From NCBI GenBank assembly GCA_015059155.1, contig SVAX01000002.1:85561-149560 (forward strand): DNA of 64,000 nucleotides, written 5' to 3'. The notes below the pieces were generated by a model that searched no databases, was not told the DNA's origin, and was given only the letters and a program-made list of their open reading frames with translations. This document shows positions 21,066 to 41,743 of this stretch, in pieces. Made by a program: the position numbers and the translations under genes. Every line of letters begins with the position of its first letter. Within the stretch, counting starts at the first letter, position 1. This DNA comes from Bacillota bacterium (GTDB lineage: Bacteria; Bacillota_I; Bacilli_A; RF39; UBA660).

Positions 21066-21152
21066 GCCTGTGTGGTGAAATTGGTAGACGCGTTGGACTC
21101 AAAATCCAATGATAGCAATATCGTGTCGGTTCGAGTCCGACCACAGGCACCA
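21066..21152 (+). tRNA. tRNA-Leu(CAA)
   Basis: GCCTGTG/CACAGGC acceptor stem, TGGTAGAC D loop, TTGGA-CTCAAAA-TCCAA anticodon arm, long variable arm, GTTCGAGTC T loop, encoded CCA. Confidence 0.97.
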
Positions 21153-21252
21153 TTGACGAATCTGTTCGAACTATTCGAACTTTTGATATATGAAATCAAT
21201 CTTAAAAGGATTGATTTTTTCGTTTTAGAAAAAATCATAGAAAGGAATTTTT

Positions 21253-21543
21253 ATGATTAATATAATTAAAGAAAAGCTCGAAATTGATGAAACTTTAAAA
21301 AGAAGATTAGAAATAATATGTGATTTTTGTAATACTACACCAGAAATTATAAATGGAAGTATTAGAAAAGTTGATAAAACTAATTTATCTTATATTGAAC
21401 CACATAGAATAATAATTAAAAATAATACATTTTTAATATTTAATTATTCTAATGAAGTTTATATTAATAATTTAAGTAAGAAAATTAAACTAAATGAACT
21501 AGAAAATTATATAAAAACTATGACTATTGACAAATCGTTATAA
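21253..21543 (+). CDS. Conserved small protein preceding LSR A (RDF/regulator candidate)
   Basis: Paralog of 27854-28138 (KTNLSYIEPH vs KTNLAYIEPH). Confidence 0.7.
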   Translation: MINIIKEKLEIDETLKRRLEIICDFCNTTPEIINGSIRKVDKTNLSYIEPHRIIIKNNTFLIFNYSNEVYINNLSKKIKLNELENYIKTMTIDKSL

Positions 21544-21718
21544 ATGAATTATTATATGAACCAATAAAGAAATTTACTTTATTAAGGGGATTATATGGTA
21601 ATAAAAAGGAATTATTTAAAACAAATTATTATTAATGAAATATTCGAGGCGTCAAAAGTTATTAGTTTTGTCTAATACTTTTGTCTCCTCTTTTTTTGAA
21701 AAAAGGGAGTGAAAAAAT

Positions 21719-23674
21719 ATGTATGATGAAAAGAAAATAGCAGGAATTTATGTTAGAGTTAGTACAGAAGAACAATCAAGAGAAGGATTCTCATTACAAG
21801 AACAAGAAAAGCGTTTAAAAGCCATGTGTGAGTACAAAGGTTATGAAGTTTATAAAATATATAAAGATGCTGGAATAAGCGCTAAAACAGGCAATAAACG
21901 TCCTGCATTTGAAGAATTACTTGAAGATATAAAAAATAAAAAATGTAATACTATTGTTGTATTAAAACTTGATAGACTTACTCGTTCAGTTATGGATTGG
22001 GAAAAGATTTTAACTTTTTTAGAAGAAAATAATGCTTATTTAGATTGTGCTAATGATGATATAAATACTACTAATGCAAATGGTAAAATGATTTCAAGAA
22101 TATTAACAAGTGTATCTCAACAAGAAATAGAAAGAACAAGTGAAAGAACTAAAATAGGATTAGCAGGAGCAATAAAAGCAGGACATATTCCTTATCAAGC
22201 ACCACTAGGTTATAAAAGAGTTGATAAAAAGTTAATTCCTGATTTAACTACAAAAAATATAGTATTAAGAATATTTGATTTATATCATAAAGGTAATTCT
22301 TACAAAAAAATAAGTAATATATTTAATGAAGAAAAAGTTTTAGGCAAAACTAACTGGTATGATTCTACTATTGTTGGAATATTACAAAATGAAATTTATA
22401 AAGGTGATTTCGTTCATGGAAAAAGAACAAAACATCCTACATATTACTCTAATGTAGTTGAACCACTTATATCAAAAGAAAAGTGGGAAGAATGTCAAGT
22501 TCAAAAGAAAAAGAATTCTAGGAGTTATCAAAGAACATTAACTTATCTATTCTTACAGAAACTTAAATGTCCTAAATGTAGTAGAATTTTAGGTGGTAAA
22601 GCAACAACTAAGAAAAATGGTAATTCATATTATTACTATTATTGTAATGATTGTAAAATCAATATAAAAGAAAATATAATAGAAAAATATATTGATGAAT
22701 TTATGAATGATATAGTTGAATATGATAGTGTTGTTAATCAATTCTTTCTACCTATGATTAAACAAAAATTAGAGAATCCTAAAGATGAAATACAAAAAGA
22801 AATTAAAAAACAAAATGATAAATTAAAAAGAATAAAAGATGCTTACATAAACGAAGTATTTACATTAGAAGAATATGATACTGAAAGAAAAAATGTTGAA
22901 AAAACTATTGAAGATTTAGAATTTAAACTAACTGAAACTGATATATGTGATATTTTAAAATTTACACCAGAAGATATATTAATAAAAAGAGATATTGATT
23001 TTATAAACTCAATTAAATACCCTAAAAAATATAAAGAATATAATAAGTCTTGGAAAGAGTTTAAAAGAGAAGAAAAAGCAAATCTTATTATGAGTTATAT
23101 AGAAGATATTAAATTAATTGAAACTAACAATAAAATAGAAGTTGACTTTGTTAATTTTAGAGAAAGTATAGCAAACCCTTGTAATGAACTTTACTATAAT
23201 GGATTTATTGATAGAACAGATTATGCTTTATTTGGAAATGTAATTGGAACATTAAGATATAGTGAGTATCGTCCAATTGAAGAAGTATGGCAACATCTTT
23301 TAAGATTAAGAGAATTCTATGATGTTAAGTTTTATGAAGCAACATATAACTTGAAACAACAAGTATTTAGATTTAGAACAGACTTTAATAAAACAATAGT
23401 AAGAGTATTCCCTATGGAAGATTATAAAAATATCGATCCTAATCAAAAATTAGAAGATTATAATTTAGGAATTATTTATATTGAAAATAATGATGAAACA
23501 TTAATGGAAAATAAAGAAGATGTATTTAATTACATACCAGATGAAGTGGAACTTCATGATGGTGGTTATGTAATTATAAAAGATGGGGAGTATGTAGATA
23601 GAAGTACAACAAAGGTAAAGCCTGTTACATTAAAAGGATTAGAAGAAACATTTTTAGAAGATGAAGAAGAATAA
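21719..23674 (+). CDS. Large serine recombinase (element A)
   Basis: YVRVSTEEQ catalytic Ser, KLDRLTR, CPKC..CNDC zinc ribbon, coiled coil. Confidence 0.95.
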
Positions 23675-23687
23675 AATGTGTGGCACG

Positions 23688-23855
23688 TTTTGCTCGCTTG
23701 CGAGTGAAAGTGGCGATAACATTTTATCAAGACTTTATGTAATTTTGTTTTATTACGAAGTTTTAAAACATTATGGAATAAAGTAAAACGGATTCTAAGG
23801 TGTACTTAGCCCACGAGGTTATTTTGATGCTTGCGTCAAAATACCTAGGGGGTTA
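23688..23855. promoter_or_regulatory. Putative oriT region upstream of MobV
   Basis: GC-enriched intergenic region with two hairpins sharing a GC-TT-GC tip (CTCGC-TT-GCGAG; TATTTTGATGC-TT-GCGTCAAAATA), directly 5' of the relaxase. Confidence 0.45.
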
Positions 23856-23897
23856 AATATTTTGTCTAAACAAAATATAGTCATAAAAAAGGAGTTG

Positions 23898-40688: not shown

Positions 40689-40804
40689 AATCTTTCCTCC
40701 CTTTGACATCTAATATAACACCCTCTTTTTAACATAACTTAAACAATAGTGGTATTTTATTGATTTTTTATAAAAATTAAGGTATTATAATGTTGGTGGG
40801 AGTT

Positions 40805-41275
40805 ATGTATTCTAATAATCTTATTTGTGAAATATTGATATATATAGATGAAAATATTAAAAATAAAATAACTATAGAAGATTTAGAAAACAAATTCTTC
40901 TATAATAGATATTACATAATGAAGTTGTTTAAAAAAGAAATCGGTTTGACCATAGTAGAATATATCAATTCAATAAGAATCTATAATTCAATATTATTAA
41001 TAAAAAATAATAATTCAAATTTTATTAATATTGCTTTTAAAAATGGATTTTATTCTTTAGAATATTTTTCAGAAACATTTAAACAAATAACAAATTTAAA
41101 TCCTAGAAAATTTAAAGATTATTTTTTCCACAAAAAATCTATATCTTTTGATGATATAGATAAGATTAATAATTCAATAGTAAAACTTTATGAAATATCA
41201 AATATAAAAGATAATTATTTATCTAAACAAAAACCTGTTATAGCTCCAGTCAAAAAATTATCAATATTCAAATAA
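40805..41275 (+). CDS. AraC-family regulator (HTH domain only)
   Basis: LFKKEIGLTIVEYINSIRI, IAFKNGFYSLEYFSETFKQITNLNP. Confidence 0.85.
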   Translation: MYSNNLICEILIYIDENIKNKITIEDLENKFFYNRYYIMKLFKKEIGLTIVEYINSIRIYNSILLIKNNNSNFINIAFKNGFYSLEYFSETFKQITNLNPRKFKDYFFHKKSISFDDIDKINNSIVKLYEISNIKDNYLSKQKPVIAPVKKLSIFK

Positions 41276-41326
41276 TTTTAACTAGATTTTTTTGACAATA
41301 ATATTTATTTGTGTTATATTAAATAT

Positions 41327-41440
41327 GTCAAGGAAACTTGCATATAATAAAAAAGGATACATTTGATTGGACGAATCAAATGCATTCCCTTAGTGGATTG
41401 CATCTGAAATCACATAGTTGTGAAATCAGATGCGTTTTTC
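41327..41440 (+). ncRNA. Putative antitoxin sRNA (~110 nt)
   Basis: TTGACA(41292)-17-TATATT(41315) with extended TG; two hairpins; T-tract at 41435-41439; antisense to the 3' UTR of the peptide gene. Confidence 0.65.
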
Positions 41441-41517
41441 TATTTTACTAGTAATAATATTATTATAGCAAGTAGAAGTAATATAATAACATATTGAGAT
41501 ATTTCTCTTTTAGTCAT
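41440..41517 (-). CDS. Putative type I toxin, 25-aa hydrophobic peptide MTKREISQYVIILLLLAIIILLLVK
   Basis: Strong RBS; promoter TTGATA(41617-41622)-17-TATAAT(41594-41599) with TG; anti-SD segment in leader; not in ORF track. Confidence 0.7.
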   Translation of the reverse strand: MTKREISQYVIILLLLAIIILLLVK

Positions 41518-41680
41518 AAATATCACCCCTTTCTTTTATTAATTTAATATTCGAAAGGGAAAGCATCTGATATTTTCAAATGCATCCATATATATTATAC
41601 CAAACATACATTCCTATATCAATAGTATATATTGATTTTTTTATTTATTTAATTTATAATATTAATAGAAAGAGAACAAC

Positions 41681-41743
41681 GTTCGTAAGCTGTAGCTTTA
41701 TCGCACCAGATGCACATATCCGAACTATTATAGTTCGTTTTTT
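41681..41743 (+). other. attR of the tRNA-Leu island with the probable original tRNA terminator
   Basis: GCACCA at 41703, then CGAACTA-TTA-TAGTTCG hairpin and T-run; left arm mirrors right arm of junction 31686. Confidence 0.7.

Follow-up and report, generated by a model that had tools for sequence, protein, structure and literature searches.

Which enzymes can insert DNA directly behind a tRNA gene, and between which bases do they cut? The question is raised by a 64,000-nt stretch of a Bacillota bacterium of the lineage Bacilli_A, RF39, UBA660 (assembly GCA_015059155.1, contig SVAX01000002.1, positions 85,561 to 149,560), which as a whole is called the window below. An ARAGORN search of the window found a single tRNA gene, tRNA-Leu(CAA), at 21066-21152 on the plus strand. 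Its last six bases, GCACCA at 21147-21152, form junction 1, the attL of the first of three elements, A, B, and C, which follow head to tail and extend to positions 27764, 31691, and 41708, corresponding to sizes of 6.6, 3.9, and 10 kb. All three open in the same order, with one or more hairpins with a U-run, a gene of ~95 codons, and an intact gene for a large serine recombinase (LSR) at a distance of ~0.5 to 0.65 kb from the left junction. The literature that we found credits the targeting of tRNA genes to tyrosine integrases only; here, a large clade of serine integrases appears to do so. Very probably, A, B, and C are three independent integrative elements, each of which was put into the 3′ end of tRNA-Leu(CAA) by its own LSR through a crossover at C72-A73.

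The element boundaries rest on comparison with other genomes. An earlier, sequence-only reading of this DNA had named GCACCA copies at 21147, 27759, 31686, and 41703 as bounding the stack and its members, and all four are present. As the window contains 21 copies of GCACCA where 5.6 would be expected, the repeat by itself proves nothing and is weak evidence. The four bounding copies are, however, the exact points at which homology to A-, B-, and C-type elements of other genomes starts or ends, and on the left this homology begins right after the encoded CCA. The recurrence of these boundaries and the intact LSR gene in each unit agree with the proposal of that reading that three independent LSR elements lie here with their junctions at a tRNA 3′ end. 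The flanking repeats of the elements are only 5 to 6 bp long, and no further CACCA core was present in 41709-44800.

By their domains, and for LSR_A also by its modelled fold, the recombinases of A, B, and C are large serine recombinases, and their recombination activity is predicted from these features. The catalytic domain PF00239 was recognized with E values of 1e-34 (LSR_A), 7.5e-38 (LSR_B), and 2e-31 (LSR_C), and the Recombinase domain PF07508 was significant in all three, while the zinc ribbon PF13408 stayed below threshold (20 to 24.7 bits versus a cut-off of 25.3). In an alignment of 25 sequences, the motif Y-x-R-V-S-T and the residues C284, C287, and C312 were invariant and C309 was nearly so. 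The closest solved relative in a sequence search was the catalytic domain of TP901-1. An AlphaFold2 model of LSR_A of moderate confidence (pLDDT, the predicted local distance difference test score, 67.8) contained the catalytic domain, the recombinase domain, the zinc ribbon, a beta ribbon (residues 292-317), and long helices (residues 318-412), and Foldseek matched it over its full length to cryo-electron microscopy structures of the serine integrases Bxb1, PhiC31, and LI. The best NCBIfam match of LSR_A was CcrB, far below threshold, and the relation to characterized LSRs is distant, with no sequence in the plasmid and phage collections exceeding 35% identity. Each element has one LSR and no second open reading frame (ORF) with a resolvase domain. 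The gene between the left junction and every A-, B-, and E-type LSR (type E is described below) encodes the motif ..TN(L/I)xY(I/V)xPH.. and is divergent in C; we regard it as a candidate directionality factor or regulator.

Other origins of the stack were considered as well. One composite island with chance repeats was rejected, as was a tyrosine recombinase acting in cis; no such enzyme was encoded among the ORFs of 21153-41708. A prophage or satellite was rejected because the stack ORFs gave no PHROG matches to phage genes. In Pfam, NCBIfam, PADLOC, and PHROGs, neither the ~95-aa genes nor the majority of the cargo ORFs had a match.

Elements of these types are widespread. Right after the CCA of tRNA-Leu(CAA), genomes of the same genus carry A-type (G019, G015, G042), B-type (G018), or C-type (G010, G013, G005) left ends, or that of a fourth type, E (GATTGATAGG..ACTCGAAC). 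Elsewhere, A-, B-, and C-types occur singly or in other orders and always start directly behind an encoded CCA. Relatives of LSR_A were encoded in 343 stretches across species genomes (genome_contigs, one scan), and flanks were examined for the best 80 of these 343. Where enough upstream flank was available, ~55 of 57 had the CCA end of a same-strand tRNA or transfer-messenger RNA (tmRNA) gene 520 to 650 nt upstream, including Thr, Leu, Arg, Gly, Phe, Met, and His tRNAs and tmRNA. NNCCA preceded all left ends recognized by motif (66/66). At the genus level, relatives of LSR_A and LSR_B lie downstream of Leu-CAA, Leu-TAG, Leu-GAG, Gly-TCC, Gly-GCC, His, Met, Phe, and Thr tRNA genes and of tmRNA, and 101 of 251 genomes of the order contain a match to LSR_B at E <= 1e-100. 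In the genome of the window itself, no LSR_A match outside the stack was found at E <= 1e-30, weaker thresholds not having been searched.

Type E is marked by the left end GATTGATAGGAAACTCGAAC and the right arm ..GTTGTTGTAC..AAAGG; it has a ~95-aa gene of its own, and its LSR is ~50% identical to LSR_A. Examples are L063, L065, and L193; E is very often a neighbour in stacks and is easily taken for native flank. We rejected GATTGATAGG..ACTCGAAC as a native flank, as it is the left end of E with its own LSR.

The crossover point was deduced by comparing element ends, targets, and palindrome axes, with the hexamer positions numbered 1 to 6. The right-end hexamer always reads G-XY-CCA, in which XY equals positions 72-73 of the target RNA: CA for Leu, Thr, Arg, and Phe tRNAs and tmRNA, CT for Gly, TA for Met, CC for His, and TG for Trp. 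Four GCTCCA cores occur in one Gly array, which comprises elements of the types E, C, and A. At position 1, G is retained also with targets that carry C (tmRNA, Met, Trp) or A (Arg) there. As only the bases that pair during strand exchange must match, this places the 2-bp crossover at hexamer positions 2-3. A dyad-axis scan of 16 rebuilt attP sites gave a single peak, between positions 2 and 3 (between X and Y), with a mean of 6.4/11 versus at most 3.6 at 18 other axes. In the window, the rebuilt joints are ..CGACAATCG-CA-CCATTGACG.. for A, ..GCTTATG-CA-CCATAGGG.. for B, and ..TTTATCG-CA-CCATTTAAA.. for C, and the symmetry about CA that had been counted before was reproduced for A (8/11) and for C (15/23, of which 11/13 at positions 12-24), as was its weakness in B. 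Covariation of XY, the invariant G at position 1, and the palindrome axis together indicate that the crossover maps to tRNA positions 72-73, in support of the earlier suggestion of a cut at the acceptor-stem/discriminator CA. From a crossover at this position it would follow that the CCA and the terminator come from the element, which had likewise been suggested for the CCA.

The shared core of 5 to 6 bp would also accommodate strand exchange inside CCA (at CC or CA) or at AC, with the element not replacing the whole CCA. Identity alone leaves the 2-bp site unfixed, and no part of the core other than CCA is fully universal. Exchange within CCA would, however, free positions 72-73 of attP from matching the target, and the match is seen in every pair and with five dinucleotides; position 72 covaries too (T in the Met and Trp cases), which argues against exchange at AC or TC, and the dyad axis falls between 72 and 73. 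We therefore hold this placement to be highly improbable. As a side point, TTCGAAC in the left arm was considered as a mirror of the T-loop. For the LI integrase, the offset between attP and attB is 5 bp; TTCGAAC lies 3 bp further from the axis, short of this value, and was not built on.

With the crossover at C72-A73, integration would proceed as follows. The recombinase would cut with the usual 2-bp stagger, at the final base of the acceptor stem plus the discriminator. All sequence to the right of this dinucleotide would come from the element, first its own CCA and then a hairpin terminator. The tRNA gene would stay intact, and the target, consisting of the T-arm/acceptor half-site, CA, and CCA, would be rebuilt at the tRNA-proximal end. 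A further element could enter the rebuilt site, giving a head-to-tail stack with internal junctions of the form right arm - G-CA-CCA - left arm. The chromosomal half-site would comprise only universal tRNA features, namely GTTCRAnTC of the T-loop at constant spacing, the dinucleotide at 72-73, and CCA, so that one type of enzyme would land at many tRNA genes and at tmRNA, and sub-lineages with a changed attP centre (CT, TA, CC, TG) would use Gly, Met, His, and Trp genes.

Several observations bear on how little of the target is read. Among 56 targets, conservation in the chromosomal arm was limited to the T-loop GTTCRAnTC, C72, A73, and CCA. One subtype was found at Leu-CAA, Leu-TAG, Leu-GAG, Thr-CGT, and tmRNA. 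A pair of integration modules that differ at 6 of ~2850 nt lie in different metagenome-assembled genomes (MAGs), one at tmRNA and the other at tRNA-Thr(CGT), and the tmRNA regions of these MAGs are only 90% identical. The view of the tRNA-Leu end as the target thus holds for this locus and is too narrow for the clade, near-identical integrases of which use different RNA genes. In L068 (G042:C51), a small prophage-like element at 4705-11580, whose genes include one for a tyrosine integrase (Phage_int_SAM_3), a Rep-like one, and one with a P-loop that by eye looks Zot-like, sits at tRNA-Gly(TCC) and is bounded by a 29-nt tRNA fragment; an A-like LSR element has docked on this fragment, so that ~29 nt of a tRNA 3′ end sufficed there. 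Whether a single integrase reads nothing more than the T-loop at a fixed distance plus CCA, with the 2-bp centre of attP alone picking the target, we judge to be about evenly balanced.

Two side observations concern related ends outside the window. In genome contig C5 (14536-15250), tRNA-Trp is followed by a mini-unit of ~600 nt that is bounded by CTGCCA and GTGCCA and has an identical TTGAGATTTAGTCGAAC left end behind each core; it is a gene-poor cassette or a tandem remnant. In genome contig C4 (74917-74990), an A-like left end (TTGGGAAATCTGTCCGAAC) lies behind tRNA-Cys(GCA), the gene of which ends in ..CCTCCA.

Strain differences were examined in conspecific contigs from other samples, which were recovered by exact-protein look-ups and have flanks 99.7 to 100% identical to the window. 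Most carry A-B-C, and the polymorphism among them falls exactly at the 6-bp cores. In contig L273, tRNA-Leu is directly joined to a B-type left end (..CACAGGCACCA followed by TAGGGAAATTAG..) without A. In sample ERZ27248306, the right core of A is followed by an E-like left end in one contig (L251), and in another (L260) an E-like right end plus GCACCA precedes B-C and the right flank; together, these contigs imply the order A-E-B-C in this sample, with the extra element exactly between A and B. The core of junction 2 has differing neighbours on either side in conspecific contigs, and several contigs stop or start within the core of junction 1. The A-less and extra-element contigs, and the occurrence of elements singly, stacked, or reordered in other genomes, support the serial stacking that had been proposed, which would follow simply from the restoration of the tRNA half-site and XY-CCA at every insertion. 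Entry of new elements at the tRNA-proximal site is favoured, because only this site would keep the tRNA arm. The direct tRNA-B junction in L273 fits a pre-A state, and decayed remnants tend to lie distally.

The same strain differences could have arisen by homologous recombination between arrays or as assembly artefacts, the stack itself being a fixed relic whose members have ceased to be moved by their own LSRs. LSR-less C-type derivatives are indeed common (G010, G005, G013), left-end remnants are frequent, contig breaks often lie at cores, and no circular form was seen in the MAG and metagenome contigs. This explanation is nevertheless very unlikely, as the genes for LSR_A, LSR_B, and LSR_C are all intact, the identical three proteins recur in many samples, near-identical modules lie at different RNA genes in different species, and the polymorphisms coincide with the cores.

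A further idea, put forward in the sequence-only reading, was that the left arm of each element imitates the right half of the native attB, with CGAACTA at a set distance, and in this way lets the next integrase use the occupied site. The spacing of CGAACTA was reproduced as 14, 13, and 12 nt past the core at junctions 1, 2, and 4. At junction 4, the motif is the stem of a terminator-like hairpin in the right chromosomal flank (CGAACTA..TAGTTCG and a T-run, plus strand, 41709-41745, by fold computation). TCGAAC lies 12 to 14 nt past CCA in the left arms of the A, B, and E types, and CGAACTA hairpins occur in several terminal flanks. Other terminal right flanks behind different tRNAs are diverse and often lack both motifs (e.g., TGTGGTTATAAAACAAAC.., ATGATGATATAAATGCG.., and CTTAAGAGTATTAAAAAG..), unoccupied tRNA genes in this genome have unrelated terminators, and the left arms of C-types have a different hairpin without the motif; even so, B is found upstream of C. 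Seemingly native flanks that bear the motif may also be leftover left ends of elements. Given this diversity of terminal right flanks and of native tRNA terminators, mimicry would not be required for stacking, and we consider it unlikely.

Some points weigh against integration at C72-A73 by three separate LSRs. LSRs normally require two specific half-sites, and a right chromosomal half-site that appears almost unconstrained is unusual for such an enzyme. Dyad symmetry is low in the attP of B (5/11). The B variant of L273 is only 93% identical over 309 nt, so that there is no isogenic pair of before and after states. The coexistence of A-E-B-C and A-B-C needs either two independent insertions of A or recombination at an internal junction without a tRNA arm. 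A fully empty tRNA-Leu site, predicted to read tRNA-GCACCA-GATGCACAT..., was not found, also not via look-ups of two flanking genes, ScpB and a 165-aa ORF, and the data basis throughout consists of MAGs or metagenome contigs. Among 40 related genomes there was likewise no empty tRNA-Leu site, the match always stopping at the tRNA end, and the right flank of junction 4 had no match in a metagenome DNA scan that probably did not cover records of the species itself.

Within element A (all features on the plus strand), the left (P′) arm at 21153-21230 consists of a TTGACGAATCTGTTCGAAC hairpin and a second hairpin with a U-run (fold z -3.3), serving as a terminator for the tRNA; this left end was also found behind the CCA of Thr, Leu, Arg, Gly, and Phe tRNAs and tmRNA, with His and Met examples too. 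It is followed by the conserved ~96-aa gene (21253-21543), which has homologues in A, B, and E elements and no Pfam, NCBIfam, or PHROG match, and by the gene for LSR_A (21719-23674; 651 aa; Pfam Resolvase 1e-34, Recombinase 1.5e-17). Downstream lie a gene for a MobV/Pre-type relaxase (23862-25277; Pfam Mob_Pre 1.8e-11) and three cargo ORFs of 162, 160, and 413 aa without family match (25358-27642). The right (P) arm, AAAGTTGTAGATAACTACGACAATC, and the core of junction 2 occupy 27734-27764; this arm is kept in more than 30 right ends, which share AAAGTTGTAGA-N14-G-XY-CCA. With an LSR and a Mob_Pre relaxase and no type IV secretion system (T4SS) genes, A has the integrase and relaxase without mating-pore genes by which integrative mobilizable elements (IMEs) are defined.

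Element B starts with a TAGGGAAATTAGTCGAAC hairpin and terminator (27765-27835, plus strand; fold z -4.4), and such B-type left ends lie behind the CCA of six different RNA genes, among them tRNA-Leu in L273. The conserved ~94-aa gene (27854-28138) is homologous to that of A, and the intact LSR_B (28292-30073; 593 aa) is 49% identical to LSR_A; both genes are on the plus strand. The lone cargo ORF (30456-31556, minus strand; 366 aa) has no family match, and no transfer gene was recognizable in B with Pfam, NCBIfam, or PHROG. The right arm (..ATTTTTCCAAATGTGGTTTGCTTAT) with the GCACCA core of junction 3 (31646-31691, plus strand) recurs elsewhere: in other genera, B-type elements at Leu-TAG and Arg-TCT (L225, L228) have it as their right end, and a diverged variant is present at Leu-CAA (L223). 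B-type elements of other genera have the same start base and the same ..TTTCCAAATGTGGTTT.. end arm as 31660-31691. Behind A-type right ends of four other genomes, B-type left ends are short remnants of 80 to 380 nt, mostly 80 to 160 nt.

In contig L258 (ENA ERZ27248314, k141_2124515), the CCA of tRNA-Thr(GGT) is joined to window position 27843 onward, with B-C 99.97% identical to the window. The first 78 nt of B, and with them the entire left arm and terminator, are missing, and a mutation affects the small gene's start codon. This arrangement may stem from relocation of B-C as one unit and a later deletion, or from a join made in assembly.

Element C begins with the TTTAAAAACAACTTACGG hairpin terminator (31692-31745, plus strand; fold z -3.2), which lies directly behind tRNA-Leu(CAA) in G010, G013, and G005 and also behind Gly and Leu-TAG tRNAs; relatives of the C clade were found behind Gly-GCC, Gly-TCC, and Leu-TAG. 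Its ~94-aa gene (31771-32055, plus strand) is a divergent counterpart of those of A and B. Three exact copies of the direct repeat AGTGAGGTATATA (32127-32254, plus strand; 0.21 expected), spaced by 52 and 63 nt, are situated immediately upstream of the LSR_C gene, reach into its start region, and may be operator sites. The LSR_C gene (595 aa from the ATG at 32270, to 34057, plus strand; ORF open from 32243) encodes a protein ~30% identical to LSR_A and LSR_B. The cargo and transfer genes at 34362-41275 encode by Pfam a DUF4932 protein, an ATP-binding cassette exporter, an AraC-type helix-turn-helix protein, and unassigned ORFs, as well as a VirD4-type coupling protein (39402-40709, minus strand; Pfam); no relaxase was recognizable in C with Pfam, NCBIfam, or PHROG. 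The right arm (..CGTTCGTAAGCTGTAGCTTTATC) and the core of junction 4 (41663-41708, plus strand) mark the point at which homology with the C-types of G010 and G005 stops, and the flanks of these two genomes differ from the window beyond it.

C-types with a reduced LSR gene were found at tRNA-Leu(CAA) in L013 (G010:C55) and L023 (G005:C5), which lost the entire gene (L013 misses window positions 32154-34177), and in L014 (G013:C3), which lost most of it. All three retain both ends, the ~95-aa gene, and most cargo, and related copies of AGTGAGGTATATA are retained in L013. The LSR-less elements of G010 and G005 still end in ..GTAGCTTTATC-GCACCA, followed by unrelated sequence. These elements are candidates for mobilization in trans or for fixation. 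A chromosomal T4SS-like cluster lies at window positions 549-15089, and the span from the relaxase to the coupling protein covers 23862-40709; with the relaxase in A and the coupling protein in C, parts of a transfer system are scattered over separate units.

The logic of this type of integration can be read from the sequence: exchange at 72-73, a CCA and terminator carried by the element, a regenerated site, and stacking. Full-text literature searches yielded no description of a serine-integrase mechanism at tRNA positions 72-73, and the tRNA/tmRNA-end serine integrases of gut bacteria apparently form a large and undescribed family, to which the window contributes a stack of three clades, a base-by-base mapping of the crossover, and strain-level presence and absence at the cores. 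The proposed mechanism would explain accessory islands behind tRNA genes in small-genome gut Bacilli and would provide an LSR for which attB is defined mainly by universal tRNA structure. It also suggests candidate integrases for genome engineering, with naturally orthogonal central dinucleotides and conserved landing sites. If a single integrase indeed reads only the T-loop and CCA and owes its choice of target to the attP centre alone, nature would offer dinucleotide-programmable orthogonal integrases (CA, CT, TA, CC, TG) that could be stacked at will, and harmless landing behind tRNA and tmRNA genes would be possible in almost any bacterium.

Among known systems, Tn4451 and Tn4453 of Clostridium, with the LSR TnpX and the Mob/Pre relaxase TnpZ, resemble element A in gene content. 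Elements of the Tn4451 type are small, integrative, and mobilizable, with a 2-bp core exchange and very short flanking repeats (PMC5704250). Tn4451 shows little specificity for its targets and enters ordinary DNA, whereas the elements described here were found only at tRNA and tmRNA CCA ends, where they rebuild the gene end and stack. In a review of IMEs, those with serine recombinases lie inside genes and those with tyrosine recombinases at tRNA ends (PMC5704250); a few tycheposons carry LSRs. The nearest precedent is given by the ssrA islands of Dehalococcoides (DsiB/DsiA), which are serine-recombinase islands at the 3′ part of tmRNA with tandem arrays and integrase-less members (PMC3146451). 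They differ in having a CcrB-like recombinase with a small partner, DsiA, a 20-bp direct repeat, insertion at the T-loop, and ssrA as the only target, compared with a single LSR, a 5- to 6-bp core at the CCA end, predicted exchange at 72-73, and many tRNAs here. Islander-type islands with tyrosine integrases also use the 3′ part of tRNA and tmRNA genes, restore the gene from the element, and accumulate in tandem (PMC4383910). Their enzymes belong to a different family, and the displaced tRNA fragments are much longer (29 nt in L068) than the 5 to 6 bp here. Composite arrays of the staphylococcal cassette chromosome (SCC), moved by CcrAB, stack serially head to tail at a regenerated site at the 3′ end of the essential gene rlmH (orfX); the target there is protein-coding, the enzymes are a CcrA and CcrB pair or CcrC, and a single chromosomal site is used in place of the class of sites seen here. 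Finally, the phage integrases A118/LI, Bxb1, PhiC31, and TP901-1 share the domain architecture and fold of the LSRs studied here, and their attP sites have dyad symmetry around a non-palindromic central dinucleotide that is the sole determinant of pairing, as appears to be the case for the present elements. These phage enzymes use one specific attB with two specific half-sites, whereas in the targets of the present clade only the T-loop, the 72-73 dinucleotide, and CCA are conserved.

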